Source: Nocardioides sp. (GTDB lineage: Bacteria; Actinomycetota; Actinomycetes; Propionibacteriales; Nocardioidaceae). From it: a stretch of 64,000 nucleotides of DNA. Position numbers and translations under genes: made by a program. Location of the stretch: the NCBI RefSeq assembly GCF_031397825.1, contig NZ_JANNML010000056.1:5225-69224 (forward strand), in the 5' to 3' direction. Shown here in pieces: positions 32,613-64,000 of the stretch. Every line of letters starts with the position of its first letter. Position 1 is the stretch's first letter. A model generated the notes under the pieces. The model worked only from the letters and a program-made list of their open reading frames with translations. It did not search any database and was not told where the DNA came from.

Positions 32613-32623
32613 GAGGGCGTTTG

Positions 32624-32642
32624 TCCCCCCACGTCGGGGGGA
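32624..32642 (+). terminator. Hairpin TCCCCCC-ACGTC-GGGGGGA after the cytidylyltransferase gene
   Basis: 7-bp G/C stem, 12 nt after the stop codon. Confidence 0.5.
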
Positions 32643-32710
32643 GGCTCCGCACGAACCCGGACCGCCGCTCCCGCGGCCGGGGCATCTCGAGATCGAGGGG
32701 AACCACCTCC

Positions 32711-46498: not shown

Positions 46499-46755
46499 GC
46501 TGCGCCCTCCCGGACGGTCCGGACCTCGTCGGTCACGGTGTGCCGCTCGACCTGGAACCACAGCCGGCACCCGGCCGCGTGGAACCAGCGCTCGCGGAAC
46601 CAGCCCCGCGGGTTGCCCCGCACGAAGAGGTAGGCCGCCCACTCACCGTCGGTGAGCGCGGCCGGGTCGCTCGGGTAGTCCACCCCGGCCTCGCCGCCGT
46701 AGTGGAACTCGGTGGCGTCGCGCTCGCCACAGTGGGGGCACGGGATCCTCAGCAT
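46495..46755 (-). CDS. soxD: Sarcosine oxidase delta subunit
   Basis: 86 aa; MLRIPCPHCGERDATEFHYGGEA is the zinc-finger SoxD signature. Confidence 0.9.
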   Translation of the reverse strand: MLRIPCPHCGERDATEFHYGGEAGVDYPSDPAALTDGEWAAYLFVRGNPRGWFRERWFHAAGCRLWFQVERHTVTDEVRTVREGAA

Positions 46756-47996: not shown

Positions 47997-50450
47997 TCAG
48001 CCCCGGAGCCGCGTCATGGCGGGGTCGAAGAGCGGTTCCTCGGTGACGACGTAGGGCAGCCGCTGGTCGAAGTAGCCGATCTCGACCTCGGTGCCCGGCG
48101 CGGCGTGATCCGCAGGGACCCAGGCGTAGGCGATGGCGCGCTCGACGGTGTGGCCCCAGGCGGCGCTGGTGACGTAGCCGACCGGCGCGCCGTCGGCGAG
48201 GACCGGCTCCTTGCCCATCACCACGGCCAGCGGGTCGGTCGAGGTCAGGCAGACCAGCTTCCTGGCGGCAGCGCCGGGATCGAGGTCGACCAGTGCGGCC
48301 TTGCCGACGAAGTCGTCCTTGGCCATCTTGACCGCGAAACCGAGACCGGCCTCGTAGGGGTCGTGGTCCCACGTCATGTCGGCACCGAACGAGCGGTAGC
48401 CCTTCTCCAGCCGCAGGCTGTTGAAGGCGGCGCGGCCGCCCGCGAGGACGTCGTGGTCCTGGCCGGCCCGCCACAGGGTGTCCCAGAGGTTCATGCCCAG
48501 GTCGGCGGTCGTGTAGATCTCCCAGCCCAGCTCACCGACGTAGGAGAGCCGCATCGCGGTCACCGGGACCATGCCGACGTGGGCCTCGACGGCTCGGAAG
48601 TACGTCACCCCGGAGTTGCTGAAGTCGTCGCTGGACACGCTCTGCACCAGGTCCCGGGCCGCCGGTCCCCACAGGCCGATGCAGCAGGTGCCGGCCGTGA
48701 TGTCGTGGACGAACACGTCGGCGGGTGCGAGCGCCTGGAGGTAGGCGAGGTCCAGGTTGCCGTTGGCGCCGATCTGGTAGCGCTGCTGGCCCGGGGCGGC
48801 GCTGAGCCGGGCCACGGTGACGTCGCTGCGGATCCGGCCGCGGGGGTCGAGCATCAGGCAGTAGGTCACGCTGCCGACCGACATCGCGACGTTGCCCGTG
48901 ACCAGGGTCTGGAGGAACGCCGTGGCACCGCGGCCCACGACCTCGATCCGCTTGAGGGCCGTCATGTCGTACATCGCGACCCGCTCCCGGGTCGCCTTGG
49001 CCTCCGCACCCGCGATCGGTGACCAGTGACGGGCGGCCCAGTCGCCGGGGACGGCGACGTCGTAGGTCTCGAGCAGGCCCTTGTTGGCGTCGTACCACTG
49101 CGGGCGCTCCCAGCCGTTGGCCTCGAGGAAGTAGCCGCCCAGCTCGGCCTGCCGCTGGTGGAACGGCGGCAGCCGCAGCGGACGTGGGGACTCCATCGGC
49201 TGGAGCGGGTGCAGCAGGTCGTAGACCTCGACGAAGTTCTGCTGGTCGCGCTCTAGCACGTAGGCCGGGCCCACCTGGTGCCGCTCGAAGCGGTCCAGCG
49301 CGGCCTCGTGCACGTCCGTGGTCGACACCCCGTCGACCAGCAGCTCGGCGACCGCGCGTCCTACGCCGGCGGAGTGGGTCACCCACACGGCCTCGGCGAC
49401 CCAGAAGCCCAGCACATCGGGGCTCTCGCCGATCAACGGACCACCGTCGGTGGTGAAGGAGAACATCCCGTTGATGCCCCACTCCACCTGCGTGTCCGCC
49501 AGCGCGGGCAGCAGGGACTGCGAGTCCTTCCACGGACCCTCGAAGTCGTCGGGTGTGAAGGGCCGCACGCTGGGCATGCCCTGCGCGTCGCCGGGCCGGG
49601 CCCAGTCGTCGAAGTCCTCGACCGCCACGGGGATCGGGCGGTGCGCGTAGGAGCCGACGACCTGGTGGTCGAAGTCGTCGCGGAAGTAGAGGTCCTCACC
49701 CTGGTGTCGCAGGATCGGACGCCGCGCCTCGTCGACCTGGCCGGCCTGGGCCGGCACCGCGGTGGTCCGGACGAGCTGGTGCTCGAGGGGGGTCAGCGGC
49801 AGGGCCAGGCCGACCATCCCCGCGACCTTCTGCCCCCAGATACCGGCGCAGCACACGACGACGTCAGCAGGGATCTCGCCGTCGGTCGTCAAGACGCCGG
49901 TGACCCGTCCGTCCTCGACCAGGACGTCGATGACCTCCGTGCTCGGACGCAGCGTCGCCCCGCGCAGCTCGGCGCGACGGGTCTGCACATCGACCGCACG
50001 GACCGCCTTGGCGAGGCCGTCCGTGGGAGTGAAGAGTCCCCCCAGGACCACGGTCGGGTCGAGCAGGTCGTGCAGCTCGACGCACTCGACCGCGGTGAGC
50101 ACCCGGGCCTCGACGCCGCTGGCGGCCAGCCAGCCGGCCCGGCGGTGCAGGTCGGTCAGGCGCTCGGGGCTGGTGGCGATCTCGAGGCCGCCGACCTGGA
50201 GGAAGCAGGGACCCTCGTCGGAGGCCAGCGAGGCCAGCTTCTCGACCGTGTAGGTCGCCAGCTCGGTCATCATCCGCGACGGGCTGGCCTGGAAGACCAG
50301 CCCCGGCGCGTGCGTCGTGGAGCCCCCGGTGTGCGGGATCGGACCGGCGTCGACCACGGTCACGTCGGTCCAGCCCCGCTGCGTCAGCTCGTCGGCGAGC
50401 GCGGCGCCCACGACGCCCGCCCCGATCACGACCACCCGCGGTCCCGCCAC
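47997..50450 (-). CDS. Dimethylglycine oxidase (FAD domain fused to a GcvT-like folate domain)
   Basis: 817 aa, collinear with my recollection of Arthrobacter DMGO from VVVIGAGVVGAALADEL...HAPGLVFQ to the C-terminal ...TEEPLFDPAMTRLRG. GTG start. Confidence 0.9.
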   Translation of the reverse strand: MAGPRVVVIGAGVVGAALADELTQRGWTDVTVVDAGPIPHTGGSTTHAPGLVFQASPSRMMTELATYTVEKLASLASDEGPCFLQVGGLEIATSPERLTDLHRRAGWLAASGVEARVLTAVECVELHDLLDPTVVLGGLFTPTDGLAKAVRAVDVQTRRAELRGATLRPSTEVIDVLVEDGRVTGVLTTDGEIPADVVVCCAGIWGQKVAGMVGLALPLTPLEHQLVRTTAVPAQAGQVDEARRPILRHQGEDLYFRDDFDHQVVGSYAHRPIPVAVEDFDDWARPGDAQGMPSVRPFTPDDFEGPWKDSQSLLPALADTQVEWGINGMFSFTTDGGPLIGESPDVLGFWVAEAVWVTHSAGVGRAVAELLVDGVSTTDVHEAALDRFERHQVGPAYVLERDQQNFVEVYDLLHPLQPMESPRPLRLPPFHQRQAELGGYFLEANGWERPQWYDANKGLLETYDVAVPGDWAARHWSPIAGAEAKATRERVAMYDMTALKRIEVVGRGATAFLQTLVTGNVAMSVGSVTYCLMLDPRGRIRSDVTVARLSAAPGQQRYQIGANGNLDLAYLQALAPADVFVHDITAGTCCIGLWGPAARDLVQSVSSDDFSNSGVTYFRAVEAHVGMVPVTAMRLSYVGELGWEIYTTADLGMNLWDTLWRAGQDHDVLAGGRAAFNSLRLEKGYRSFGADMTWDHDPYEAGLGFAVKMAKDDFVGKAALVDLDPGAAARKLVCLTSTDPLAVVMGKEPVLADGAPVGYVTSAAWGHTVERAIAYAWVPADHAAPGTEVEIGYFDQRLPYVVTEEPLFDPAMTRLRG

Positions 50451-50583: not shown

Positions 50584-51567
50584 TCAGGACAGCCAGGCCT
50601 CGACCTTGTCGGGGTTCTCCTCGACCCACGTGGCGGCTGCCTCCTCGGCAGACATCCCGTCCACGGAGATGTACTTGGCGACGAGGTTCTGGTCGTCGTT
50701 GGTCCACTGGAAGTTCGCGATCAGGTCGACAGCGGGGCTGTCCGACTCGGCGAACTCGGTGGCGACGACCTTCTTGAGCTGGGTCTCGGGGTAGTCGCAG
50801 GCGACGTCCTGGGCGACGTCCTGGCAGCCGTCGGTGAACTCCGGCAGGTTCACCTTCACCAGCGGCACCTCGGACATGAACCACTGCGGCTCGTAGAAGT
50901 AGCCGATGAGCGGGGTCTTGTTGGCCTCCGCCTTCTCGAAGGCCGCGATCGACGCGGCCTCGCTGCCCGAGAACACCACCTGGAAGTCGAGGCCCAGGTT
51001 GGCCACGATCGCCTCGTCGAACTGGACGTAGGACGGGTCGGCGCCGAGGAACTGCCCCTTGCCGCCCGACTCCGGGGTCTCGAACATGTCGGCGTAGTCG
51101 TTGAGGTTCTCCCAGTCGGTGATGTCGGGGTACTCCTCAGCCATCCACGGCGCGACGTACCAGCCGATGATCCCGACGTTGCCGGTCGGCCCCATCTCCA
51201 TGGCGCTGCCGTCACCACCCTGGTCCTCGAAGTAGAGCTTCTCGAGGTCGGGGTGGCCCCAGTCCTCGATCACGACGTCCACCTCACCCGTGCCGAAGCC
51301 CTGCCAGGAGACCTCCTCCTTGAGGTCCTTGTAGTTGACCGTGCACCCGAGCTCGGTCTCGGCCAGGTGACCGACCACGTAGGCGTCAGCCGCGAAGCCG
51401 ACCCACGGGTTCACGGCCATGTTGAGCTCGCCGCAGTCGCCTGCCGCAGCAGCCTGGCTCTCGTTCTCCTTCTCCTCCGCCGCGATGTCGCCACCGCCAC
51501 AGGCGCTCAGGACGAGCGCGAGCGTGGCGAGCGACCCGGTGATGGCACTGGCTTTCCTCAGCTTCAC
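50584..51567 (-). CDS. Glycine betaine/choline ABC transporter substrate-binding lipoprotein
   Basis: Lipobox LVLSACGGG and a ProX/OpuAC-like body (NPWVGFAADAYV, WGHPDLE, GWYVAPW). GTG start at 51567 with an AAGGAAG RBS. Confidence 0.85.
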   Translation of the reverse strand: MKLRKASAITGSLATLALVLSACGGGDIAAEEKENESQAAAAGDCGELNMAVNPWVGFAADAYVVGHLAETELGCTVNYKDLKEEVSWQGFGTGEVDVVIEDWGHPDLEKLYFEDQGGDGSAMEMGPTGNVGIIGWYVAPWMAEEYPDITDWENLNDYADMFETPESGGKGQFLGADPSYVQFDEAIVANLGLDFQVVFSGSEAASIAAFEKAEANKTPLIGYFYEPQWFMSEVPLVKVNLPEFTDGCQDVAQDVACDYPETQLKKVVATEFAESDSPAVDLIANFQWTNDDQNLVAKYISVDGMSAEEAAATWVEENPDKVEAWLS

Positions 51568-51602: not shown

Positions 51603-53681
51603 TCAGGACAGGTGGTGGGCTGGCGTGCGGGTGCGGAGCCGGACCAGGAGGCCGGGCGCGCTGCGGTCGCGCTCGGCAGCGCCTCGGGCGACACGGTCGA
51701 CCATGATCCCGAGCAGGACGATCGCGATGCCGGCAGAGACGCCCTTGCCGAAGAACTCTCCGCGCGAGAAGCCGAGGACCGAGTCGTAGCCCAGCGCCCC
51801 GCCTCCGACGAGGCCGCCGATCACGACCATGGCCAGCACGAAGAGCAGCCCCTGGTTGGCGGCGAGGACCAGGTGGCCGCGGGCCATCGGGAGCTGGACC
51901 TTGGTGATCAGCTGCCACGGCGTGGAGCCGGCAGCAGTGGCAGCCTCGACGGTCGTCTCCGAGACCTGCCTGACCCCGTCGGCCACCAGCTTCGTCGCGA
52001 CCGGCACGGCGTAGATGAACGCCGCCACGATGGCAGTGAACCGGCCGGGGCCGAAGAGCGCCAGCACCGGGATGAGGTAGACGAAGGACGGCATCACCTG
52101 GCCCGCGTCGAGCAGCGGCCGGAGCAGGCGGTCGACGAGCCGCCGTCGGGCCATCCAGACGCCGAGCACGACGGCGACGACCATCACGAAGAGCGTGGCG
52201 ACGAGCACGCTGGTGAGCGTGACCATGGCGTCGTACCAGAGGTCGGTGGCGTAGATCCCGCTGAGGCAGACAGCGCTGATCAGGGCTCCCCGCCACCCGG
52301 CGAGGAGCTGGGAGAGGACGAGGAGCGCCAACCCGGTCACGAACCACGGCGAGCCGGCGACGAGGTCCTGGAGCGGGTTGATGAAGACCGTCGTCACGCT
52401 CTCCTGGATCCCCGTGGTCAGTCCGGAGAAGTTCGAGGTCGTCCAGTCGGTGGCCGACTGGACCGCATCGGCGACCTCGGGGCCGACCTCCGTGTCCGGG
52501 AACTCGGCGAACGAGAAGTAGGTGCGCGAGACGTAGACCGAGACCAGCGCTGCAGCACCGGCCACGGCGAGCACGATCCGCTGGGTGCGCCGGTTGCCGC
52601 CACCTCCTCGGGCGACCAGCTCGGTGCGCTCGCTGGCGGCGGTGGTCACCCGGTCGAGCATGATCGCGATGAGCACGATCGACGCACCCGCGACGAACGC
52701 GACGCCCACCTGGTTGGAGCCCGCGGTCAGCGCGCGGAGCACCGGCTTGCCGAGCCCGGGACCGTTGACGAAGCCCGCGATGACGGAGATCGACAGCGCC
52801 GCCATCATGGTCTGGTTGACACCCACGATGATCGAGGGTCGCGCCATGGGGAGCTGGACCTTGATCAGCCGCTGCCACCCGGTCTGCCCGAGCGACGTGG
52901 TCGCCTCGATCGTGGTCTCGGACACGCTGCGCAGCGCGTGGGCGGAGATCCGCACGGCCGGGGGCAGCGCGTAGAGCACGGTGACGGCGACGGCGATGGC
53001 CGGCCCGAGGCTGAAGAAGAGCGCCATGGGAGCGAGGTAGACGAACGCCGGGAAGGTCTGCAGGACGTCGAGCACCGGGGTGACGACCGCGTTGACGCGA
53101 CGGCTGGTGCCCATCCACACCGCGAGGGGCAGGCCGAGCGCCAAGGACACCGCGACCGAGAAGAACGTGATGATCAGCGTGTCCATGCCGTCGACCCAGT
53201 AGCCGAGGAGCCCGACGGCGGCCAGCGACGCCATGGTCCCGAGGGCGTGGCGCCACCCGGCGATGGCCAGGCTCACCCAGCCGGCGATCCCGAGCACGCC
53301 CAGCCAGCCGATCTGAGGGACCGGGCGCGGCAGGTCCGGGGTGGAGACGAGCCCCTGCAGCTGCTCGACCACCCCGTTGAAGGCGTCGGACACCGCACCG
53401 ACCACCTGCATCAGCACGTTGGTGTCGCGCCCCGCGATCAGGTCGGCCTTGAGGTCGGTGAAGCGGTCGTGGAAGTCGGTGGTCTCCTGCCCCGGCAGGT
53501 AGAGCACCGCCCTGCCGTCACCGATCCTCGATGCCACCCACCAGATCACGACGACGACCAGCAGCCAGCCCCACAGGGGTACGACGCGGCGCGGTCGCGG
53601 CGCTACGGGTCTCGTCGCCTCCCCCGGTGCGTCCGGTGGCGAGGTCACGAGGCCCGGCTCGGTCGTGGGTGCTGACGTCAC
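51603..53681 (-). CDS. Fused double-permease subunit of the betaine ABC transporter
   Basis: Two tandem BPD-type permease domains, each with an EAA-like loop ([24 protein letters not shown] and [24 protein letters not shown]). GTGA overlap with the ATPase gene. Confidence 0.85.
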
Positions 53682-54751
53682 ACTGCCTGCCCGGTGGTCG
53701 AGACTGGGACGGAGACGGGAGCCGACTCCTCGGCCACGACGACCCGCAGGATGGCGTCGTCGTCGACGATGCCGACGAGCTTCCCCTCGCTGACCACCTG
53801 GACGGGGTGCGCGGAGGCCAGCGCTGCCTGGGCCGCCTGACGCACGATGGTGTCCAGCGACATCACCGGCCCCTCGCGGGAGTCCTCCGGCGTCGGGTCG
53901 CGCATGACGTACTCGAGCGTGAGCACGTGCGAGCGGGGCACGTCGCTGACGAAGTCACGGACGTAGTCGTCGACCGGCCGCGCCACCACCTCGGCGGGCT
54001 TGCCGATCTGGACTATCTCCCCGTCGCGCATGATCAGGATCCGGTCGCCGAGCTTGAGGGCTTCCTGGAGGTCGTGGGTGACGAAGAGCATGGTCTTCCT
54101 CAGCTCCGCCTGGAGCCGGACGACCTCGTTCTGCATGTCGCGGCGGATCAGCGGGTCGAGCGCGGAGAACGGCTCGTCGAACAGCAGGATCGCGGGGTCG
54201 TTGGCCAGCGCCCGGGCAAGGCCGACCCGCTGCTGCATGCCACCGGAGAGCTGGTCGGGGTAGGACTCGTCGTAGCCGGTGAGTCCGACCAGGTCGACGA
54301 GGTCCCCCGCTCGCTGGCGGCGCTGGGCCTTCTTGACGCCGCGGACCTCGAGACCGTAGGCAACGTTGTCGATCACCTGGCGGTGCGGCAGCAGGCCGAA
54401 GTGCTGGAAGACCATGGAGACCTTGTGACGACGCAGCTCGCGCAGCTCGGCGCCCGAGGCCTTCGTGACGTCCTCGCCGTCGATCGTGACCTGACCCGCC
54501 GTGGGCTCGATCAGCCGCGTCAGGCAGCGCACCAGCGTCGACTTGCCCGAGCCGGAGAGGCCCATCACGACGAAAACCTCGCCGGGAGCCACGTCGAAGG
54601 ACACGTCCTTGACCGCGGCGACGCAACCGGTCCTGGCCTTGAGGTCGGCCCGGGAGAGGTCGGCATCGGGAGTGCCGATCACCTTGTCGGCACGCTGGCC
54701 GAAGATCTTCCAGAGTCCGTCGACCTGCAGCGCGGGGGCTGACTCGCTCAT
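53678..54751 (-). CDS. Glycine betaine/proline ABC transporter ATPase (ProV/OpuAA-like with a C-terminal CBS region)
   Basis: Walker [10 protein letters not shown], signature LSGGMQQR, and Walker [17 protein letters not shown] overlap with betA. Confidence 0.9.
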
Positions 54752-56478
54752 GGTGTCTCCTCGGTGGCCACCGGCGCGGCCGAGTTGCGGGGGTCCCCTG
54801 GGGGGAAGAGCGGCGATCCGTCACGGTAGCGGTAGTAGGGCGCCGACGACGGGGGCAACGGGGTGTTGCCCCCGATCAGGTCGGCGGCCTTCTCCGCCAG
54901 CATCATGGTCGGTGCGTAGATGTTGCCGTTGGTGACGTAGGGCATCGAGGAGGCGTCCACCACCCGGAGCCCGTCCACGCCGCGCACCCGCATCGAGGCT
55001 GGGTCGAGCACGCTCAGATCGTCGACGCCCATGCGGGCGGTGCAGGAGGGGTGCAGCGCCGTCTCGGCGTCCTCGGCGACCCAGTCCAGGATCTCCTGGT
55101 CGGTCTCGACCCGTGGCCCGGGCGAGATCTCGCCGTCGTTGAAGGCTGCGAACGCCGGCTGGTTCATGATCCGTCGCGCCGCCCGGATCATCTCGATCCA
55201 CTCGCGGCGGTCGTTGTCGGTCGACAGGTAGTTGAACTGCAGCGCCGGGTGCTCGAACGGGTCCCGGCTCTTCAGGGTCAGGGTGCCCCGCACGTCGGAG
55301 TACATCGGCCCGACGTGGACCTGGTAGCCGTGCGCAGCGGCCGGCCGGGACCCGTCGTACCGGATCGCGATCGGCAGGAAGTGGAACATCTGGTTGGGGT
55401 AGTCGACCTGGTCGTTGCTGCGGATGAAGCCGCCGCCCTCGAAGTGGTTGGACGCTCCGACACCGCGCCGCAGGAAGAGCCACTCGGCGCCGATACGAGG
55501 CTTGTGCCGGTGCTTGAGCCAGGGCCCGATCGAGACGGGTTGCTTCGAGGCGTACTGGATGTAGACCTCGAGATGGTCCTGGAGGTTGGCGCCGACGCCG
55601 GGAAGGTCCGCGACCACGGGGATGCCGAGCCGCTCGAGGTCGGCCTTCGGACCGATGCCGGAGAGCAGGAGCAGCTGGGGCGAGTTGATCGCACCACCAC
55701 ACAGGATGACCTCGCCGGCACGGACGCGGCGGCGGGCGCCGCGCCGGCCGATCCCGCGGACGTAGTCGACGCCGGTGACGCGGGCGCCGTCCAGGGTGAG
55801 CCCGGTGACCTGGGCGAGGGTCTCCACCGTGAGGTTGGGCCGGGAGCGGACGGGGTGCAGGTAGGCGCGGCTGGCCGAGAGCCGGCGGCCGCGGTGCAGG
55901 TTGCGGTCGAACGGCGCGAAGCCCTCCTGGCGGTAGCCGTTGACGTCGTCGGTGAGCGGGTAACCCGCCTGCTGGGCCGCCTCGAAGAACGCGCCGAACA
56001 ACGGGTTCGTCGCCGGACCGCGCTCGAGGACCAGCGGGCCGGAGCCGCCGCGCCAGTCGTCGGCACCGGCCAGGCAGTTCTCCATCCGCTTGAAGTAGGG
56101 CAGGCAGTGCGCGTAGTCCCACTCCTTCATGCCCGCGTCGGCGGCCCAGCGCTCGAAGTCGAGCGGGTTGCCGCGCTGGAAGATCATCCCGTTGATGCTG
56201 CTGGACCCGCCGAGCACCTTGCCGCGGGCGTGGTAGACCCGGCGCCCGTTCATGTGCGGCTCCGGCTCGGACTCGTACTTCCAGTCGTAGAGCCGGTTGC
56301 CGATCGGGTAGGGCAGCGCGGCCGGCATGTGGATGAACGGGTCGAGGCGCGAGTCGGAGCGGCCCGCCTCCAGGACCAGGACACTGGTGCCGGGATCGGC
56401 ACTGAGCCGGTTGGCCAGGACCGAGCCGGCCGAGCCGCCGCCGACGATGACGACGTCGAAGGAGCGCACGTCGGTCAT
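54748..56478 (-). CDS. betA: Choline dehydrogenase (GMC family)
   Basis: [33 protein letters not shown] and HPSCTARMG motifs. ATGA overlaps on both sides (betB upstream, ATPase downstream). Start at MTDVRS. Confidence 0.85.
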
Positions 56479-57974
56479 CGGTGCTCCCGCCCGTCGAACC
56501 AGCTCTGCACGGAGGGTCGCACGTTGTGCCAGACGTGCTTGGTCTCGCGGTACTCCTCGAGCCCGGCCGCCCCGAGCTCGCGGCCGATGCCGGACTGCTT
56601 GTAGCCGCCCCACTCCGCCTGCGCGACGTAGGGGTGGAAGTCGTTGATCCACACGGTGCCCATCCTCAGCCGGGCAGCGACCCGTTCGGCGCGACCCGCG
56701 TCGCGCGTCCAGACGGCGCCGGCCAGTCCGTAGATGCTGTCGTTGGCCAGCCGCACCGCGTCGTCCTCGACCGCGTCCTCGGTGTCCCCGGCGAAGGTCT
56801 CGACCGTCAGCACCGGGCCGAAGGACTCCTCCTGCACGACGGTCATCGACGAGGTGCAGCCGTCCAGGATCGTCGGCAGGTAGAAGTACCCCTCGTCGTA
56901 CGCCGCGCCCCGGGGCCGCTCGCCGCCCAGGCGCAGCGTCGCACCCTCGGCGATCCCGGCGGCCACGTAGGCCTCGACCTTCTCGCGGTGCGCGGCGCTG
57001 ATGAGGGCGCCGGTCTCCGCGTCGGGGTCGAAGGGGCCGCCGAGCCGGATCAGCGCCGCCCTCTCGACCAGCCGGTCCACGAAGTCGTCGTGGATCGACT
57101 CCTCGACCAGCAGCCGCGCACCGGCGGAGCACACCTGGCCCGAGTGCAGGAAGACCGCGGTGAGCGCCATGTCGAGCGCCACCTCGAGGTTGGCGTCGGC
57201 GAACACGATGTTGGGGTTCTTGCCGCCGAGCTCGAGGGCGATCTTCTTGACCGTGCCGGCCGCGGCCACCATCACCCGCTTGCCCGACGCGAGCCCGCCG
57301 GTGAACGAGACCAGGTCGACGTCCGCGTGCTCGGTCATCGGCGCGCCGACGCCGGGACCGTCGCCGAGCACCAGGTTGGCGACCCCCGCGGGCAGCCCCG
57401 CCTCGGTGAGCGCGTCCATCAGCCACAGCGCGGTCGACGGGGTCAGCTCGCTCGGCTTGAGCACGAACGTGTTGCCGGTCGCCAGGCAGGGCGCGACCTT
57501 CCAGGCGGTCTGCAGGAGGGGGTAGTTCCACGGGGTGATCAGGGCGCACACACCGACCGGCTCGTGGACGACCCTGCTGACCACGTCGGCGCGGCCGGTG
57601 TCGACGACACGACCCCCCTCGGCGCCGGCGAGCCCAGCGAAGTGACGGAAGACCGAGGTCACGTCGGCGACGTCGTACTCGCTCTCGACCAGGCGCTTGC
57701 CGGTGTCGAGCGACTCCCGCCGGGCGATCTCGGCGGTGTCGCGCTCGAGCAGGTCGGCGAGGCGGTGCAGCAGCGCTGCCCGGTCGGTCGACGAGGTCCG
57801 CGGCCACGGACCGGAGTCGAAGGCGCGACGGGCGGCAGCCACGGCCAGGTCGACGTCGGGGGCGGCGCCGTCACTGACGGTGCGCACCGCGGTGTTGTCG
57901 GCGGGACAGCGGATCTCCCGCGTGCCCCCGCCCAGCGCGTCGCGCCAGGCCCCGTCGACGTAGAGCTCAGCCAT
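56475..57974 (-). CDS. betB: Betaine aldehyde dehydrogenase
   Basis: ALDH superfamily ([28 protein letters not shown]), assigned by its position upstream of betA. Confidence 0.85.
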
Positions 57975-58089: not shown

Positions 58090-58848
58090 TCAGGTCAGGT
58101 CCCTCCAGCCGAGCCGCCGCGAGACCTCGACCGCGCAGCGCACCAGCTCGGTCCGAGCCCGGTCGACCAGCTCGGCGGTGAACCGGAAGGTCGGCCCGGA
58201 GACCGACATCGAGGCGATCACGTCACCGTGGATGTTGCGCACCGGAGCCGCCACGGCACTCAACCCGTGCTCGAGCTCGTCGACCACGACGACGTAGCCG
58301 TCGTGGCGTACGCCAGCGAGCTGAGCGACCACGTCGACAACATCGGTCATGGTCCGGGTCGTGTAGGCCGGGAGCTCTTCGGTCAGCACGGCACGAACCT
58401 CGTCGTCGCTCATCCCGGCGAGGAGCACCTTGCCGTTGGACGTGGCGTGCAGCGGGATCCGCTGACCGACCCAGTTGTGCGACTGGACGGCCGAGGCCGC
58501 CTCCACCTGGTCGACGTAGAGCGCGGCCCCCTCGGAGAGGACGGCCAGGTTGACGGTCTCCCCCGTGACTGCCGCCAACGACCTGGACAACGAGCGCGCC
58601 TCCTGCACCACGTCGAGCCGCGCCGTGGTCGCACCGGCCAGGCGCAGGACGCCGACCCCGAGGCGGTACTTGCCACGCGACTCGTGCTGCTCGACCAGGT
58701 CTCGCTCCGCGAGCGAGTCGATCAGCCGGGACACGGTGGACTTGTGGACGTCGAGCTGCCCGGCGATCTCGGTGACCCCGCGCTCGCCGTCACGTGCCAG
58801 GATCTCCAGGATCTGCAGGGCCCGGTTGACCGACTGCACCGTGCCCAT
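58090..58848 (-). CDS. IclR family transcriptional regulator
   Basis: wHTH MGTVQSVNRALQILEILARDGERGVTEIAGQLDVHKSTVSRLI plus an IclR effector domain. Start at ATG 58848, preceded by an AAGGAGG RBS. Confidence 0.9.
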   Translation of the reverse strand: MGTVQSVNRALQILEILARDGERGVTEIAGQLDVHKSTVSRLIDSLAERDLVEQHESRGKYRLGVGVLRLAGATTARLDVVQEARSLSRSLAAVTGETVNLAVLSEGAALYVDQVEAASAVQSHNWVGQRIPLHATSNGKVLLAGMSDDEVRAVLTEELPAYTTRTMTDVVDVVAQLAGVRHDGYVVVVDELEHGLSAVAAPVRNIHGDVIASMSVSGPTFRFTAELVDRARTELVRCAVEVSRRLGWRDLT

Positions 58849-58872
58849 CCGATCCTCCTTCGATCCGTCGTT

Positions 58873-58908
58873 GTTGCTCATTATGCAACTACTTGCGCAT
58901 GAAGCAAC
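58873..58908. promoter_or_regulatory. Tripartite motif GTTGC-N7-GCAAC-N14-GCAAC, site C (IclR/purU divergent region)
   Basis: GTTGC at 58873-77, GCAAC at 58885-89 and GCAAC at 58904-08. It lies 25 nt upstream of the IclR ATG. Confidence 0.65.
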
Positions 58909-58928
58909 ACGTGTCGCAGGCTTTTCCG

Positions 58929-59789
58929 ATGACACCGCGATCCGGACACGTCTACGTGCTGACGCTCGCCTGCGACAACCACCTCGGCCTGGTCCATGCG
59001 GTGTCCACCTGGCTCGTCGCGCACCGAGGCAACATCACCGACTCGCAGCAGTTCGACGACCCTGCCACGCAGCGGTTCTTCATGCGCCTCGAGTTCGAGG
59101 CGCCGGACGTCGCGCTCGAGGCGCTGAGGAACTCGTTCGTCGGCGTCGCACAGGCCCACGCGATGTCGTGGCAGCTCGTCGCGGCCACGGCGCCCTACCG
59201 GACGTTGATCCTGGTCTCCAAGTTCGGTCACTGCCTCAACGACCTGCTGTTCCGCCACAGCACCGGGGTGCTCAACATCGACATCGCAGGCGTCGTGTCC
59301 AACCACCGCGACTACGAGCGGCTCACGGCGACCTACGACGTGCCGTTCCACCACGTCCCGGTGACGGCGTCGACGAAGGCCGAGGCCGAGGCCCGGCTGC
59401 TGTCCCTGGTCGACACCGAGCAGGTCGACCTCGTGGTGCTGGCGCGCTACATGCAGGTGCTCTCCGACGAGACCTGCGCCAAGCTCGACGGCAGGATCAT
59501 CAACATCCACCACTCGTTCCTGCCGAGCTTCAAGGGCGCCAGGCCCTACCACCAGGCCCACGACCGGGGCGTCAAGCTGATCGGCGCCACCGCCCACTAC
59601 GTCACCCCGGCCCTGGACGAGGGACCGATCATCGAGCAGGACGTCGTCCGCATCGACCACCGCACCACCCCCGACGAGATGGTCCAGGCCGGTCGAGACG
59701 TCGAGGCCCGGGTCCTCGCCCAGGCCGTCCGCTGGCACACCGAGTCGCGCCTGTTCCTCGACCGGTCGCGTGTGGTCGTCTTCGACTGA
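58929..59789 (+). CDS. purU: Formyltetrahydrofolate deformylase
   Basis: ACT-like N-terminus (YVLTLACDNHLGLVHAVS) and a formyltransferase core (INIHHSFLPSFKGARPYHQAHDRGVKLIGATAHYV). Start ATG 58929 is preferred because the earlier TTG 58893 and ATG 58899 would place motif site C inside the CDS. Confidence 0.9.
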   Translation: MTPRSGHVYVLTLACDNHLGLVHAVSTWLVAHRGNITDSQQFDDPATQRFFMRLEFEAPDVALEALRNSFVGVAQAHAMSWQLVAATAPYRTLILVSKFGHCLNDLLFRHSTGVLNIDIAGVVSNHRDYERLTATYDVPFHHVPVTASTKAEAEARLLSLVDTEQVDLVVLARYMQVLSDETCAKLDGRIINIHHSFLPSFKGARPYHQAHDRGVKLIGATAHYVTPALDEGPIIEQDVVRIDHRTTPDEMVQAGRDVEARVLAQAVRWHTESRLFLDRSRVVVFD

Positions 59790-60941
59790 TCAGCCGGCGT
59801 CCGGGGCGGTCCGGGCGGTGACCCAGGCGTGGAAGTCGCCGATGTGGTGCTCGCTGGGGACCAGCACACCTCCGTCGCGGTAGAGACGCGACGACATCGC
59901 CGGCTGGGTCCGCTCGCAGGCCTCGAAGTCCTGCTGGTTGACCCGGTGGAAGAGCTCGACGGAGGCCGTCACGTCGCGGCCGGAGGCGACGACGTCGGCG
60001 GTGTAGAGCCAGTCGCACTCGACGATCGTGAGCTGCTCCGAGATGGGGTACATCCGGTGCCAGATCACGTGGTCGGGAACGAGGTTCACGAAGACCTGCG
60101 GCTTGATCGTGATCGCGTAGTACTTGCGGTCGCGATCCTCGTCGAGGCCGGGGAGCACCCCCACGCCCTCGGAGCCGTCGATGGTGAAGCCCCGGACGTC
60201 CTCGCCGAACTCCGCCCCGTGGTCGACGAAGTACTGCGCTGCCAGGCCGTCGGCGAACTCCGGCAGCACCTCGGTGAGCTCGGGGTGGATGGTCGCGCAG
60301 TGGTAGCACTCCATGAAGTTCTCGACGATGAGCTTCCAGTTGGCCTTGACCTCGTAGGTGATCCGCCGACCGACGCTCAGCGAGGCGATGTCGTAGGACG
60401 CGATCTTGTCGACGGTCCCGAGGCGGGCCACCACCTCCGCCTCGACGGTGCCCTCGAAGCTGGGTGGGTCGTCGGCCAGGGACACCCACACGTAGCCCAT
60501 CCAGGAGCGCACGTGCACGCTGCGCAGGCCGTAGTCGACGCGATCGATGTCGGGCATCTTCGTGAGGTTGGGCGCGGCCACCAACCGGCCGTCGAAGTCG
60601 TAGGTCCAGGCGTGGTAAGGACACTGGAAGGAGCGCGCCTTCTCACCGGACTCCTCGAGACAGATCCGCGCACCCCGGTGCCGGCAGATGTTGTAGAAGG
60701 CGCGCAGCTCACCACGGCGCGAGCGGGTGAGCAGGATCGACTCGCGGCCGACCTGGACCGTCCGGAACGCACCCGGCTTGGGCAGGTCGCTCGCGTGCGC
60801 GGCGCAGAACCACATGTCCTCGAAGATCCGCTCGCACTCGCGGGCGAAGACCGCAGGGTCGACGTAGGCCGCCCCGGGCAGCGTCGGGATCAGGCTGGAC
60901 TCCCCAGCCGGGGAGGTGGTGGCGTCGGACGTGGTGGTCAC
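59790..60941 (-). CDS. Rieske non-heme iron oxygenase alpha subunit, choline-monooxygenase/GbcA-like class
   Basis: Rieske motif CRHRG-x17-CPYHAW and catalytic motif NWKLIVENFMECYHCATIHPE. GTG start at 60941 with an AGGAG RBS. Its stop is back to back with the purU stop (TGATCA). Confidence 0.85.
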   Translation of the reverse strand: MTTTSDATTSPAGESSLIPTLPGAAYVDPAVFARECERIFEDMWFCAAHASDLPKPGAFRTVQVGRESILLTRSRRGELRAFYNICRHRGARICLEESGEKARSFQCPYHAWTYDFDGRLVAAPNLTKMPDIDRVDYGLRSVHVRSWMGYVWVSLADDPPSFEGTVEAEVVARLGTVDKIASYDIASLSVGRRITYEVKANWKLIVENFMECYHCATIHPELTEVLPEFADGLAAQYFVDHGAEFGEDVRGFTIDGSEGVGVLPGLDEDRDRKYYAITIKPQVFVNLVPDHVIWHRMYPISEQLTIVECDWLYTADVVASGRDVTASVELFHRVNQQDFEACERTQPAMSSRLYRDGGVLVPSEHHIGDFHAWVTARTAPDAG

Positions 60942-60960
60942 GGGGTCTCCTGGGTGGTCG

Positions 60961-62154
60961 TCATAGGGCAACGGGAAGGGCCGCGAGCGAGCGCCGCAGG
61001 CGACCGAAGAGCCGGGGCTGGTCCATGCCGAGCACGGCGGTGGGCTCGCCGCCGCGGCGGTAGACCACGAGCACGTCGCAGGTCTCCGGGCTGCCCGCCT
61101 CGACCGTGAGGGTCTCGTCACCGAAGCGACGACCGGCGAACTGGATGCGGACGCCGTACTGCTCGCTCCAGAAGTACGGCGCCGGCAGCGGCGGCGCCGG
61201 GCCTGCGCCGCCGAGCAGCGCCTCCACCGTCCGGCGGGGCCGCTCGTGGGAGTCGGTCCAGTGCTCGACCCGGTGCCGGGTGCCGCGCACGGCGTCGTGC
61301 CAGGCGGAGCAGTCGCCGACGCCGTAGACACCGGGAGCGCCGGTGGAGCCCTCGGCGTCGCAGCCGAGCCCACCCGTGGGGCCCGGGGCGAGGTCGAGCC
61401 CCGAGCCGGCCAACCAGTCGACAGCGGCGACCGAGCCGATCCCGAGCACCACGACGTCGGCCGGCAGGTGCCGCCCGTCGGCCAGCTCGACCCCGTCGAC
61501 CCTCGTGCGGCCGGTGAGCCTCCTGACCGGGGTGCCGCACAGGAGCGGGACGCCGTGGGCATCGTGCAGGCGCGCGACCATCGCGCCGACCTCGGGTCCC
61601 AGCGGTCCCGACAGCGGGCTCGCGGACGCCTCCACGAGGGTGACCCCGAGCCCCACAGCGCGGGCGGTGGCCGCGATCTCCGCACCCACGAAGCCGGCAC
61701 CCACCAGCACGAGACGCGCGCCGGGCAGCAGCTCCGTGCGCAGCGCGACCGCGTCGTCGAGCGTGCGCAGCGTGTGGACGCCGCGCAGCCCACCGCCCAG
61801 GGCGGGCGACAGGCCCCGCGCCCGGGAGCCCGTGGCGACCACGACGGCATCACCGGTGAGCATCTGACCGTCGGCCAGCGTCACGGTCCGGGTGCCGGGA
61901 TCCAGCGCGACGGCGCGGACGCCGAGCCGCCAGTCGAGGCCGAGGTCGGTCTCGTGGTCCTCCAGCGAGAGGTCCTCGACGCTGGTGGTGCCGACGAGGA
62001 ATCCCTTGGACAGCGGCGGCCGGTCGTAGGGGCGGTGCGGCTCATCTCCGACCATCACGACGTCCCCGTCGAAGCCGGCGCCGCGCAGCGCCCTGGCGGT
62101 CGCGTGACCGGCCAACGAGGCGCCCACCACGAGGATGCTGCGGGGGTCGGCCAT
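60961..62154 (-). CDS. FAD/NAD(P)H-dependent ferredoxin reductase (glutathione-reductase fold)
   Basis: ILVVGASLAGHATA (FAD), LVLVGAGFVGAEIA (NAD) and GVGDCSAW motifs. Start at MADPRS, sharing one base with the ferredoxin stop (TGATG). Confidence 0.85.
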   Translation of the reverse strand: MADPRSILVVGASLAGHATARALRGAGFDGDVVMVGDEPHRPYDRPPLSKGFLVGTTSVEDLSLEDHETDLGLDWRLGVRAVALDPGTRTVTLADGQMLTGDAVVVATGSRARGLSPALGGGLRGVHTLRTLDDAVALRTELLPGARLVLVGAGFVGAEIAATARAVGLGVTLVEASASPLSGPLGPEVGAMVARLHDAHGVPLLCGTPVRRLTGRTRVDGVELADGRHLPADVVVLGIGSVAAVDWLAGSGLDLAPGPTGGLGCDAEGSTGAPGVYGVGDCSAWHDAVRGTRHRVEHWTDSHERPRRTVEALLGGAGPAPPLPAPYFWSEQYGVRIQFAGRRFGDETLTVEAGSPETCDVLVVYRRGGEPTAVLGMDQPRLFGRLRRSLAALPVAL

Positions 62155-62504
62155 CACCGCGCCTCGAACGTCACACCCGGTGGGAGGTGCGGCACCTCGT
62201 CGGACAGCTCGACCCAGATCCCGTCGTCGCGCACCGTCGCGGCGTGCACCCGCACCGGCCGCTTGGCCGGCGGCTGGTCGACCCGACCCGTGCGGAGGTC
62301 GAACCGTGAGGCGTGCAGCGGGCACTCGACCCAGCAGTCCTCGAGCCAGCCGTCGGCGAGCGAGGCGTCCTGGTGGGTGCAGGTGTCGTCGATGGCGTAG
62401 ACGTCGTCGTCCTCGGTCCGGAACACCGCGATCGGGGGTGTCACCGTCGTGATCCGCACCCCCTCGCCCACCGGGACGTCGGCGAGGGCACACACGAGCT
62501 GCAT
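62154..62504 (-). CDS. Rieske-type [2Fe-2S] ferredoxin
   Basis: 116 aa; CTHQDASL...CPLHASRFDLRTG. Start at MQLVCAL. Confidence 0.85.
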   Translation of the reverse strand: MQLVCALADVPVGEGVRITTVTPPIAVFRTEDDDVYAIDDTCTHQDASLADGWLEDCWVECPLHASRFDLRTGRVDQPPAKRPVRVHAATVRDDGIWVELSDEVPHLPPGVTFEAR

Positions 62505-62675
62505 GAGGACTCCAGGGTGCTGGCGGTGAGGGTCCGAGCCTGTGGCCAAGGGGCCGGACCTGTCAACACATGATGCACCACGACAGGGACTCGAGTTCGA
62601 CAATTCACGTGGTGGAGAAAGCGTCGGTCAAACCCGCTCCCACCTGGGCAGACGTCTGTCTGAGCGATCAGGAAG

Positions 62676-62694
62676 AGTTCCATATTGTGGAACT
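62676..62694. promoter_or_regulatory. Palindrome AGTTCCA-N5-TGGAACT (plus an adjacent TGGTTC half-site), candidate operator
   Basis: Read directly in the AT-richer divergent region between the Rieske operon and the second IclR gene. Confidence 0.5.
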
Positions 62695-62742
62695 GTGGTT
62701 CTATGATGTGACTGCCTGTCCCTCTCGGCCCAGGAGGTCACC

Positions 62743-63489
62743 ATCGCCGGCACCCAGTCCGTCGACCGCACGACCGCGCTGGTGGCGCTCGTGGTGCGCG
62801 CGGAGCAGCCCCTGACCTACTCCGACCTGGTCGCTGCCACCGGGCTCCCCCGCTCCACCGTCTCGCGGCTGCTCGGTGCCCTCGAGGTGGGAGGCCTGCT
62901 CGAGCGGGACGGCGACGGGGCCTACCGGGGCGGTCGCCTGTTCGCCGACTACGCCGCACGCTTCGACCGCGTCGAGGCACTGGTCCGGGTCGCGCACACC
63001 CACCTGGAGGACCTCGCGTCCGAGACCGGGGAGACCGTCAACCTGGCGGTGGCCAGGGGCTCGCACGTGGTCCACGTGGACCAGGTCGATGCCCGGTTCG
63101 TCATCGGCTCTGTCAGCTGGGTGGACCTGGAGGTGCCCAACCACTGCTCGGCGCTCGGCAAGGTGATGCTTGCGTGGGGCGTCGTACGCCCTCCGACCGG
63201 CCGGCTGGAGCGGCGCACGCCCTTCACCGTGGCGACCCACGCCGCGCTGCAGGAGGACCTCGCGGAGACCCTCGAGCGCGGCTACGCCCTCACGCGCGGC
63301 GAGCTCGAGGAGGGCCTGGACGGCATCGCCGTGCCCGTCCGAGGCACCGACGGCAGCGTCGTCGCGGCACTCGGGGTCTCCGGACCGACCTTCCGGATCG
63401 GAGACCGGCGCCCGGCGATCGCCGAGAGCCTGCGGACGCACGCGGCAGCCGTCACCGCTGACCTGGCGCGGCGTGCCCGCCGGGCCTGA
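62743..63489 (+). CDS. IclR family transcriptional regulator (second copy)
   Basis: wHTH ...GTQSVDRTTALVALVVRAEQPLTYSDLVAATGLPRSTVSRLL aligns with the first IclR protein. The frame is open from 62707. The only start signal upstream of the HTH is AGGAGG-N5-ATC at 62743. GTG 62782, the ORF-track start, would truncate helix 1. Confidence 0.8.
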   Translation: MAGTQSVDRTTALVALVVRAEQPLTYSDLVAATGLPRSTVSRLLGALEVGGLLERDGDGAYRGGRLFADYAARFDRVEALVRVAHTHLEDLASETGETVNLAVARGSHVVHVDQVDARFVIGSVSWVDLEVPNHCSALGKVMLAWGVVRPPTGRLERRTPFTVATHAALQEDLAETLERGYALTRGELEEGLDGIAVPVRGTDGSVVAALGVSGPTFRIGDRRPAIAESLRTHAAAVTADLARRARRA

Positions 63490-63816
63490 GCGAGAGGCAC
63501 TGCGGCCACCTCCGTGTTCGGGACGGCCAGGGCACCCGCGAACCGCTCACCGATCGCCCGCCGCACCGCGTCGAGCGAGACGATCCAGGTCAGTGCAGCC
63601 AAGGCCCCGGGAGATCGGTGTGGGGCAACGGTCGGTGCAGCCGGTCGCGGGCCAGCTCGGTCGCGGGCAGGGTGACGACCCGGGTCGAGGGACGAGGGAC
63701 GAGACGAGCGGCGGGAACGCCTGCGCGTGCAGGCCCATGTCGAAGCCCGCCACCGAGAGCATCTCGGCGGCCGTGACGACGCCCTGGCCGCCCCTGCCGT
63801 GGATCCTGACGTTGAC
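63490..63816 (-). pseudogene. Decayed 2-oxoacid:ferredoxin oxidoreductase gamma-subunit gene
   Basis: The N-terminal signature [35 protein letters not shown] is in one frame, [21 protein letters not shown] in a second, and [24 protein letters not shown] in a third. About 90 expected residues are missing in between. Confidence 0.55.
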
Positions 63817-64000
63817 GATGCCGCTCAGCGCCGGCAGGGGTGATGGCAGGGAATCGTCACGCGGCTCGGCCGCCGGCGGCCTCGTCGCACGACCCGCCCG
63901 GACGAGAGCTGCCGAGCCCTCCGCAGTCCTCGTCCGCGCGAGCCGCCGCAGCAACCGACGTGGTCCTCTCGACCGACGCTCCCCTGTGCGTGACCTGGTG

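Follow-up and report, generated by a model that had tools for sequence, protein, structure and literature searches.

A candidate three-component Rieske oxygenase for glycine betaine demethylation in Nocardioides and other Actinobacteria

Few osmolytes enter soil and water in larger amounts than glycine betaine, and its first demethylation decides the entry of carbon, nitrogen and methyl groups into central metabolism. In a 64-kb stretch of Nocardioides DNA (hereafter the window; GC content about 71%), a string of genes covers the route from choline to glycine, and the conversion of betaine to dimethylglycine is the only step of this route without an assigned enzyme in the window. Which enzyme takes this step? 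Close to the string lies a three-gene operon for a Rieske oxygenase, a ferredoxin reductase and a Rieske ferredoxin. We suggest, at a probability of about three in four, that this triad is a three-component glycine betaine N-demethylase, which would yield dimethylglycine and formaldehyde. An earlier interpretation of the DNA (the sequence-only reading) had suggested a possible N-demethylase for betaine or a related quaternary amine, with a biphenyl/toluene-style electron-transfer chain, and both the family placement of the oxygenase and the conserved synteny now support that proposal. As a candidate for the unassigned actinobacterial step, the triad is specific, conserved widely and easy to test.

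The triad and the family of its oxygenase

The operon lies on the minus strand. It encodes a soluble Rieske-type [2Fe-2S] ferredoxin (62154-62504; 116 aa; Pfam Rieske/Rieske_2), an FAD- and NAD(P)H-dependent ferredoxin reductase of the glutathione-reductase (GR) fold (60961-62154; 397 aa; Pyr_redox_2, Pyr_redox and Reductase_C) and the terminal oxygenase, an alpha-only Rieske non-haem iron protein (59790-60941; 383 aa; Rieske and Ring_hydroxyl_A). All three open reading frames (ORFs) of the sequence-only reading were located there with the expected domains. The one-base overlap TGATG that it had described was verified at 62156-62152, where the ferredoxin stop TGA (62156-62154) and the reductase start ATG (62154-62152) have one base in common. 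The oxygenase starts with GTG at 60941, and the sequence AGGAGA stands just before it. The genes of the triad are co-operonic and translationally coupled. At the other end of the operon, the stop codons of the oxygenase gene and of the convergent purU gene abut without any spacer (TGATCA, 59787-59792), and no terminator-like hairpin was found at this junction.

The electron-transfer proteins resemble those of aromatic dioxygenase systems. The reductase gave HcaD/AndAa-like profile matches in NCBIfam, and its matches in the PDB were 6TUK, BphA4 and TodA. The ferredoxin passed the cut-off of the HcaC-type model PRK09965 (137 bits, with 113 required), and its likeness to PDB entries was of the BphF/TodB/CarAc type. 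With a separate Rieske ferredoxin and a GR-type FAD reductase encoded together with the oxygenase, the triad has the composition of a three-component (class IIB-type) system. An exact-sequence look-up of the oxygenase returned no record; its nearest named relative was the protein of N. dongkuii (81% identity), and that of the reductase was the protein of N. psychrotolerans (86%).

The oxygenase belongs to the group V Rieske oxygenases, and this assignment is well supported by sequence, fold and active-site residues. Its top NCBIfam model was the GbcA equivalog model (NF058607) with 224 bits, whereas no aromatic dioxygenase model exceeded 117 bits. Among proteins in the PDB, Stc2 (175 bits), the Ruegeria protein 3N0Q (165 bits) and CntA (141 bits) matched better than biphenyl dioxygenase (113 bits). 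The nearest folds of an AF2 model built on 41 orthologues (pLDDT 84.8, pTM 0.86) were likewise Stc2 (TM 0.77-0.79), 3N0Q and CntA (TM 0.68-0.75). We compared 121 sequences, namely the window oxygenase and 120 orthologues, in which 47% of the positions were at least 98% conserved. The Rieske ligands C86, H88, C107 and H110 and the iron ligands H214, H219 and D338 were invariant, and so were the bridging residue E211 and the cysteine pair C212/C215 in the motif E211-C212-Y-H214-C215. A bridging Glu together with a Cys-x-x-Cys pair has been described for the group V Rieske oxygenases that act on quaternary ammonium compounds (Quareshy et al., PMC7948474, PMC10952381), and the outgroup BenA has D-G-Y-H-V at this site. 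No beta-subunit gene was found beside the oxygenase gene, in the window or in the related loci that we inspected. That the enzyme acts on a quaternary ammonium substrate is suggested by the betaine-pathway synteny described below.

These results agree with the sequence-only reading in placing the oxygenase in the group of choline monooxygenase (CMO), GbcA and CntA, as the GbcA, Stc2 and CntA matches, the bridging Glu and the cysteine pair all point there. The catalytic stretch NWKLIVENFMECYHCATIHPE that it had quoted was found and is invariant in the 121 orthologues. It had also given the Rieske motif as CRHRG-x17-CPYHAW; both halves of the motif are present (C86, H88, C107, H110), but the spacer is x16 and not x17.

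Betaine genes around the triad

The gene next to the oxygenase is purU on the plus strand, encoding formyltetrahydrofolate deformylase (58929-59789; NCBIfam PRK06027, 402 bits). Beyond it, a gene for an IclR-family regulator, IclR1 (58090-58881), heads a string of bet, transport, dimethylglycine oxidase and sox genes, all on the minus strand. The string contains betB for betaine-aldehyde dehydrogenase (56475-57974; TIGR01804, 599 bits, below the cut-off of 668.6) and betA for choline dehydrogenase (54748-56478; TIGR01810, 812 bits, above the cut-off), followed by a betaine/choline-type ABC transporter made up of a ProV ATPase (53678-54751), a fused permease (51603-53507) and an OpuAC-type binding protein (50584-51567). 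Dimethylglycine oxidase (47997-50435; 812 aa) has an FAD domain and a folate-binding GcvT domain, and the heterotetrameric sarcosine oxidase is encoded by soxB (46767-47990), soxD (46495-46755), soxA (43757-46444) and soxG (43246-43764). A gene for a serA-type D-3-phosphoglycerate dehydrogenase (41983-43167; PRK11790, 567 bits, cut-off 404) closes the string. The top NCBIfam name of the 812-aa flavoprotein was trimethylamine N-oxide demethylase; we rejected it, because that match spans the GcvT domain only and the protein scored 986 bits against Arthrobacter globiformis dimethylglycine oxidase (PDB 1PJ5).

We profiled 47 ORFs of the window against Pfam or NCBIfam, and none of these encodes a BHMT or a corrinoid methyltransferase; 30 of them, in 1-41979, gave unrelated functions only. 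A GbcB-type one-protein reductase of the FNR/2Fe-2S kind was also not found in the window by tblastn with Stc4, YeaX, the Ralstonia GbcB and a Cereibacter reductase. The identification of betA, betB, dimethylglycine oxidase and soxBDAG bears out the earlier claim that the neighbours cover the steps from choline to betaine and from dimethylglycine to glycine, and among the profiled ORFs its companion claim also holds, that none of these neighbours takes betaine to dimethylglycine.

Similar neighbourhoods are found in many other Actinobacteria. By scanning one genome per species we obtained 80 actinobacterial loci, in which the orthologues are 69-74% identical. The genera include Streptomyces, Arthrobacter (with A. 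globiformis), Pseudarthrobacter, Kocuria, Sinomonas, Mycolicibacterium, Gordonia and Nakamurella, as well as Geodermatophilus, Actinoplanes, Planosporangium, Microbispora, Kribbella, Lentzea and Terrabacter. Neighbours were counted by tblastn with the window proteins in 60 loci whose 10-kb flanks are complete (21 kb each). Within 10 kb of the oxygenase, the reductase was present in 56 of these 60 loci and the Rieske ferredoxin in 54, and the order ferredoxin-reductase-oxygenase on one strand was kept in 38. The betaine genes were also frequent: betA was found in 39 loci, ProV in 38, betB in 35, purU in 32, dimethylglycine oxidase in 31 and soxB in 15. At least one of betA, betB, dimethylglycine oxidase, soxB and soxA was present in 56 of the 60. 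This ties the triad to the betaine genes across the Actinobacteria; the sequence-only reading had suggested looking for such a co-occurrence, with dimethylglycine oxidase and sox genes, in the Nocardioidaceae.

In six loci (L020, L043, L070, L072, L075 and L077), the dimethylglycine oxidase gene is on the strand of the oxygenase and immediately upstream of it, and fewer than 100 nt separate the two alignments; this arrangement is seen in Planosporangium, Actinoplanes and Kribbella. In a seventh locus, from Lentzea (L006), the stop codon of the dimethylglycine oxidase gene overlaps the start of the oxygenase gene. Some loci, such as L018, L019, L021, L070 and L073, have dimethylglycine oxidase and sox genes without betA or betB, an arrangement that is understandable only when the oxygenase supplies these enzymes with dimethylglycine. 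Neighbourhoods from Terrabacter, Microbispora, Tsukamurella and Lentzea that were labelled with Pfam contained folD, sdaA, BCCT, soxBDAG and a formate-dehydrogenase-like molybdoenzyme with FdhD. Genes of trimethylamine metabolism (Tmm, Tdm, GmaS) were absent from the Pfam-labelled neighbourhoods, and genes of aromatic pathways (dihydrodiol dehydrogenase, ring-cleavage dioxygenase) from all those inspected. Even in a metagenomic relative with 50% identity, the OpuAC-ABC genes, the oxygenase, the Rieske ferredoxin and the GR-type reductase are still together.

The electron-transfer partner is different in the proteobacterial relatives. All those that we fetched (Stc2/Stc4, YeaW/YeaX and the proteins of Rhizobium, Cereibacter, Paracoccus and Ralstonia) have a single reductase of the 'hybrid-cluster NAD(P)-dependent oxidoreductase' type next to the oxygenase. 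By tblastn, a distant homologue of the FNR/2Fe-2S reductase was detected in only two of the 80 actinobacterial loci, and it was adjacent to the oxygenase in neither.

Several loci show further variation. The ferredoxin gene overlaps the oxygenase gene directly in N. dongkuii (L001) and Microbispora (L004). A formate-dehydrogenase-like molybdopterin oxidoreductase is encoded at or near the oxygenase in nine of the 80 loci (for example L003 14070-17284, with FdhD, and L004 11128-13512), and in Lentzea a Zn-dependent alcohol dehydrogenase (L006 6475-7560) stands ahead of dimethylglycine oxidase; both enzymes could serve in the disposal of the formaldehyde or formate expected from a Rieske demethylation. 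A 680-aa flavoprotein similar to Old Yellow Enzyme and TMADH (DgcA/Stc3-like) lies beside the triad in Tsukamurella (L005 6171-8213), in Gordonia and in one Streptomyces locus (L008, L078), and no dimethylglycine oxidase was detected in these three loci. An uncultured Actinomycetota metagenome-assembled genome (L051) has a DgcA/Stc3-like homologue further off, and dimethylglycine oxidase is also present there. This flavoprotein may be an alternative dimethylglycine demethylase. A metagenomic relative with 45% identity (P0125) has the motif F-S-E-C-Y-H-C and is flanked by a 574-aa protein with a B12-binding domain and a GntR regulator, without betaine genes. It probably acts on a different substrate and likely marks the edge of the isofunctional group.

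Proposed reaction and competing readings

We infer the following scheme, in which the substrate, the hydroxylated carbon, the electron path, the oligomeric state and the regulation are all predicted. Electrons would pass from NAD(P)H to the FAD of the GR-type reductase, from there to the small soluble Rieske ferredoxin, and then to the Rieske cluster of the oxygenase (C86/H88/C107/H110). The oxygenase would probably form an alpha3 trimer as in CntA, and Glu211 would relay the electron to the mononuclear iron (H214/H219/D338) in the subunit next to it. At this iron O2 would be activated and one N-methyl group of glycine betaine hydroxylated, and the resulting hemiaminal would collapse to dimethylglycine and formaldehyde. 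A cation-pi contact probably fixes the trimethylammonium head of the substrate to the invariant Phe209, in the way of CntA and not by binding of the carboxylate to the iron as in Stc2; this positioning is suggested by Phe209 and the aromatic pocket. Which carbon is hydroxylated cannot be read from the sequence, because the methyl carbons and the alpha-methylene are equally near the nitrogen. We argue for a methyl group because dimethylglycine oxidase is recurrent in the neighbourhoods and often directly adjacent. The neighbouring dimethylglycine oxidase and sarcosine oxidase would then convert dimethylglycine to glycine, PurU would handle the folate-bound one-carbon units, and the divergently encoded IclR protein would probably control the operon via the palindrome GTTCCA-N5-TGGAAC.

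Several findings weigh against this reading, and most of them concern the distance between the oxygenase and the recognised demethylases. Its score of 224 bits lies far below the curated GbcA cut-off of 670 bits, and its best stretch of alignment to the model, residues 20-232, covers chiefly the Rieske half. On the same model, a Paracoccus protein scored 528 bits, Stc2 496, a Cereibacter Stc2-like protein 485 and a Rhizobium HpbB-like protein 414, whereas two actinobacterial orthologues scored 219-220, the CntA orthologue YeaW of E. coli 154 and BenA 124. The oxygenases of Ralstonia (L096 5983-7227), from a dgcAB-etfAB-(gbcA)(gbcB)-SBP-purU cluster, and of Burkholderia (L095 5983-7224) belong to textbook clusters of the dgcAB-etfAB-gbcAB type, yet they reached only 473 and 464 bits. 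Because these proteins are also below the cut-off, the model is narrow and will miss many likely betaine monooxygenases.

Trees and pocket residues point in the same direction. A neighbour-joining tree (500 bootstraps) was made from 18 sequences, with context-defined candidates from Ralstonia and Burkholderia as the GbcA references in place of Pseudomonas GbcA and BmoA. The actinobacterial clade was monophyletic with 100% bootstrap, and the Stc2-like and context-defined GbcA proteins formed another clade, also with 100% bootstrap, that leaves it out. Group V has been divided by the residue at CntA position 203, which is Tyr or Phe, in cation-pi contact with the ammonium head, in Va enzymes (CntA, plant CMO, OxyBAC) and Asn in the Vb N-demethylases (GbcA, BmoA, Stc2) (PMC7948474). 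With YeaW as the only Va reference, the actinobacterial clade grouped firmly with neither side: it joined Vb in 51% and YeaW in 8% of the replicates of the full-length tree, compared to 48% and 41% in the tree of the catalytic domain. The window protein and all its 120 orthologues have Phe209 at the CntA-Tyr203 site, and all seven Vb-type references have Asn. We also surveyed the 150 nearest cluster representatives in a library of 1.84 billion proteins, and of the 120 that carry the motif, 98 have Phe or Tyr at the signature site and only four have Asn. Because of this prevalence of Phe and Tyr, the actinobacterial clade lies in a large, mostly uncharacterised, Va-like sequence space.

The length and the pocket of the oxygenase are also CntA-like. 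The protein is CntA-sized, it lacks the insertion of about 35 residues that follows the His motif in Stc2-type enzymes, and HMMER aligned it with CntA in a single full-length stretch. By pairwise HMMER alignment to the CntA chain, the CntA pocket positions Y225, F258, N270, Y295, Y315 and D323 correspond to F238, Y274, N286, C309, F331 and D338 of the window protein, and the mapped residues are invariant or conservatively substituted among the orthologues. The term 'GbcA-like' used in the sequence-only reading holds for membership of the group and fails in the strict sense: the enzyme represents a separate lineage outside the Vb clade, with an aromatic signature of the Va type.

Some of the contrary evidence comes from the loci and the literature. 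Both dimethylglycine oxidase and soxB are missing within 10 kb in 27 of the 60 loci. The clusters of N. dongkuii (L001 9661-11122) and Microbispora (L004 9687-11131) have no reductase gene; the reductase is therefore dispensable in cis, and it may be supplied from elsewhere. A BHMT may be encoded outside the 64-kb window, elsewhere in the genome, and the searchable literature contained no report in which a member of the clade had been put to a biochemical or genetic test.

Could the triad then carry out the chemistry of a Va enzyme? It might cleave the C-N bond of betaine or another trimethylammonium compound to give trimethylamine and an aldehyde, as CntA does, or it might oxidise choline to betaine aldehyde as plant CMO does. 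Phe209 as the Va signature, the end-to-end alignment of the catalytic domain with CntA, the Phe or Tyr of most near neighbours, the 41% of bootstraps with YeaW and the betA gene that adjoins the triad in many loci are all in keeping with this. However, the grouping with YeaW falls to 8% in the full-length tree, and the absence of Tmm, Tdm and GmaS from the labelled neighbourhoods does not favour the formation of trimethylamine. A recurrent and often adjacent dimethylglycine oxidase would be pointless after C-N cleavage. As to choline, betA already oxidises it, and loci with the oxygenase, dimethylglycine oxidase and sox genes but without betB do not fit a choline monooxygenase. We therefore consider Va chemistry unlikely, although it is the best of the alternatives.

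Slightly less probable is that the substrate is another betaine or quaternary amine, such as proline betaine, hydroxyproline betaine, carnitine or trigonelline, with the betaine genes nearby for common uptake and one-carbon handling. The substrate is not fixed by the sequence alone: Stc2, which acts on proline betaine, scores far above the window protein on the GbcA model, OpuAC-type transporters accept several betaines, and the 45%-identical relative stands in an unrelated context. This explanation is at odds with the recurrent partners of the triad, which are specific to the route from betaine through dimethylglycine to sarcosine, and with the lack of genes for proline or hydroxyproline catabolism, N-methylproline demethylase or carnitine metabolism in the window and the inspected loci.

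It is still more doubtful that the triad, though real, is physiologically secondary to a BHMT-type methyltransferase whose gene lies outside the window and which acts as the main betaine demethylase. The window shows no more than 64 kb of the genome, and the BHMT route is used by Sinorhizobium and many marine bacteria. Nevertheless, the triad is embedded in a catabolic cluster and kept across orders at about 70% identity, which implies strong selection, and the analysis of Arthrobacter Rue61a gave no complete pathway from known enzymes.

An ordinary aromatic ring-hydroxylating dioxygenase with a biphenyl/toluene-type chain is hardly credible, since its support, a ferredoxin and reductase closest to HcaC/HcaD, BphF/BphA4 and TodB/TodA and the uninformative NCBI product name of the orthologues ('aromatic ring-hydroxylating oxygenase subunit alpha'), is met by the missing beta-subunit gene, aromatic models at about half the GbcA-model score, a bridging Glu with a CxxC pair in place of the Asp of BenA-type enzymes, Stc2 and CntA as fold neighbours, and neighbourhoods free of dihydrodiol dehydrogenase and ring-cleavage dioxygenase.

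Glycine betaine demethylation by the triad remains our preferred reading, and it can be extended. We lean slightly towards the view that a third, independently evolved group V lineage demethylates betaine in soil Actinobacteria, combining a Phe cation-pi contact with N-methyl hydroxylation and a biphenyl-type ferredoxin and GR-type reductase. By soil Actinobacteria we mean, with the same slight preference, Streptomyces, Arthrobacter, Nocardioides, Mycolicibacterium, Kocuria and others. The closest counterparts in function would be GbcAB of Pseudomonas aeruginosa and BmoAB of Chromohalobacter salexigens, which share with the triad the inferred reaction, the place in the pathway, group V membership, an alpha-only oxygenase, the bridging Glu and the CxxC pair. 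Compared to GbcA, the window oxygenase has about 40 residues fewer and no insertion behind the His motif, carries Phe for Asn and falls outside the Vb clade. GbcB is a single protein of the FNR/plant-type-ferredoxin kind, whereas the triad uses a separate Rieske ferredoxin and a GR-type FAD reductase; and the regulator is of the IclR type in the triad and of the AraC/GlxA type in GbcAB.

Among other betaine enzymes, the stachydrine demethylase Stc2/Stc4 of Sinorhizobium meliloti (PDB 3VCA) is the closest solved structure by sequence and fold, and it also performs the N-demethylation of a betaine. However, Stc2 is only about 33% identical to the window protein and much nearer to GbcA, its signature residue is Asn, its substrate is bound to the iron through the carboxylate, and its partner Stc4 is a one-protein reductase. 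CntAB/YeaWX (PDB 6Y8J) has an oxygenase of similar size (371-374 aa) that aligns end to end, with an aromatic residue at 203 and the cysteine pair in common and with matching pocket positions (window/CntA: F238/Y225, Y274/F258, N286/N270, F331/Y315). It differs in its identity of about 30%, in the cleavage of the C4-N bond to give trimethylamine, in Tyr295, which holds the far carboxylate and is replaced by Cys in the window protein, and in the one-protein reductase CntB/YeaX. Plant CMO, which we compared by description only, is a group Va enzyme of choline and betaine metabolism that makes betaine aldehyde with a plant-type ferredoxin. It depends on a separate soluble ferredoxin and is effectively a multi-component enzyme. 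The chains BphA3/A4, TodB/TodA, HcaC/HcaD and AndAb/AndAa of class IIB aromatic systems have homologous ferredoxins and reductases and the same operon logic, but they serve alpha/beta ring dioxygenases, whereas the oxygenase supplied by the chain of the triad is an alpha-only group V enzyme of an aliphatic quaternary-amine pathway.

In the literature, Arthrobacter sp. Rue61a was reported in 2012 to grow on glycine betaine with an 'incomplete' genome-predicted pathway (PMC3534580). For the conversion of betaine to dimethylglycine, the introductions of a 2022 Environmental Microbiology paper and a 2025 AEM paper list only GbcAB/BmoAB and BHMT, and the group V papers of 2020 and 2023 treat only two-component enzymes (PMC7948474, PMC10952381). 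The genome paper of Paenarthrobacter ureafaciens reports adjacent bmoA (K00479) and bmoB (K21832) from KEGG and reads them as synthesis of betaine from choline (PMC11945447); these labels show that the clade has already been tagged automatically and misread as biosynthetic. Some orthologues likewise carry the KEGG-derived names 'glycine betaine catabolism A' or gbcA, and the reductase orthologues have generic names only. The functional guess for the oxygenase is thus already implicit in databases. In the full-text literature, where coverage is thin for subscription journals, we did not come across any account of a glycine betaine monooxygenase that is actinobacterial or three-component, which agrees with the earlier remark that this architecture was not known to be described, KEGG labels aside. 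Nor did we find a description of a separate lineage outside the demethylase clade with a Va-type pocket signature, or of the dedicated Rieske ferredoxin and GR-type reductase, the IclR control and the phylum-wide distribution.

The significance is limited in that the chemistry is known and KEGG pipelines already tag some orthologues as gbcA. If our reading is true, however, the triad would provide the first case of a group V Rieske oxygenase that receives its electrons from a Rieske ferredoxin and a GR-type reductase, and the step left open since the work on the Arthrobacter dimethylglycine oxidase would have an enzyme assigned to it. A major soil sink for betaine would then escape surveys restricted to strict gbcA and BHMT. 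Of most interest is the testable conflict with the residue rule that parts demethylating from C-N-cleaving quaternary-amine oxygenases: the rule 'Asn = demethylase, Tyr/Phe = C-N cleavage' would break, and such a counter-example to the Va/Vb residue would be useful for predicting trimethylamine-forming and demethylating enzymes in microbiomes.

Control regions and minor features of the window

The triad operon is transcribed divergently from a second IclR-family gene, IclR2 (62743-63489, plus strand; HTH_IclR and IclR_C; listed GTG start at 62782), and both the orientation and the domains agree with the sequence-only reading. The control region between the ferredoxin gene and IclR2 (62505-62742) contains a TTGACA and a 17-bp palindrome, GTTCCA-N5-TGGAAC, at 62677-62693. 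The arms of the palindrome are kept in N. dongkuii with a different spacer. In the 80 loci of about 70% identity, we did not find TTCCA-N3-7-TGGAA upstream of the ferredoxin gene, apart from two unrelated matches; the idea of an operator therefore relies on two Nocardioides sequences, and they hint that the palindrome may be a putative operator through which IclR2 controls the triad. A different palindrome, GTTGC-N7-GCAAC, occurs at 58870-58886 in the spacer between IclR1 and purU, where it overlaps the IclR1 start, and this difference suggests two separate regulons. A scan for consensus promoters and terminators in 58800-63600 found nothing, and a search of the whole window with Rfam at the gathering threshold returned no RNA family, hence no riboswitch.

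The frame of IclR2 runs upstream of the listed GTG, and there it encodes the peptide GTQSVDR, which matches the N-terminus of the N. dongkuii orthologue. The ATG of that orthologue corresponds to ATC at 62743 in the window, with AGGAGG a few bases upstream, and ahead of the peptide the frame (62707-62782) lacks ATG, GTG and TTG codons. By this comparison, the true start of IclR2 is likely the ATC at 62743. Either translation of IclR2 begins at AUC, a rare start codon, behind a strong Shine-Dalgarno sequence, or its helix-turn-helix domain is truncated at the GTG at 62782.

Four ORFs are well supported by their GC3 and have no Pfam match at E <= 1e-6. They encode proteins of 552 aa (32621-34279, plus strand), 569 aa (35917-37626, minus strand), 208 aa (34413-35039, plus strand) and 275 aa (2726-3553, minus strand). 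A second GMC oxidoreductase of 622 aa is encoded at 37751-39619. ARAGORN called a 99-nt tRNA-Leu(CAA) at 749-847 on the plus strand, where it overlaps an ORF for a TetR-family protein (190-807) at its 3' end; the call may be spurious, or the tRNA may be genuine and have a long arm. Finally, the ORF at 63547-63954 on the minus strand, just beyond IclR2, encodes a peptide that we take to resemble the gamma subunit of 2-oxoacid:ferredoxin oxidoreductases.

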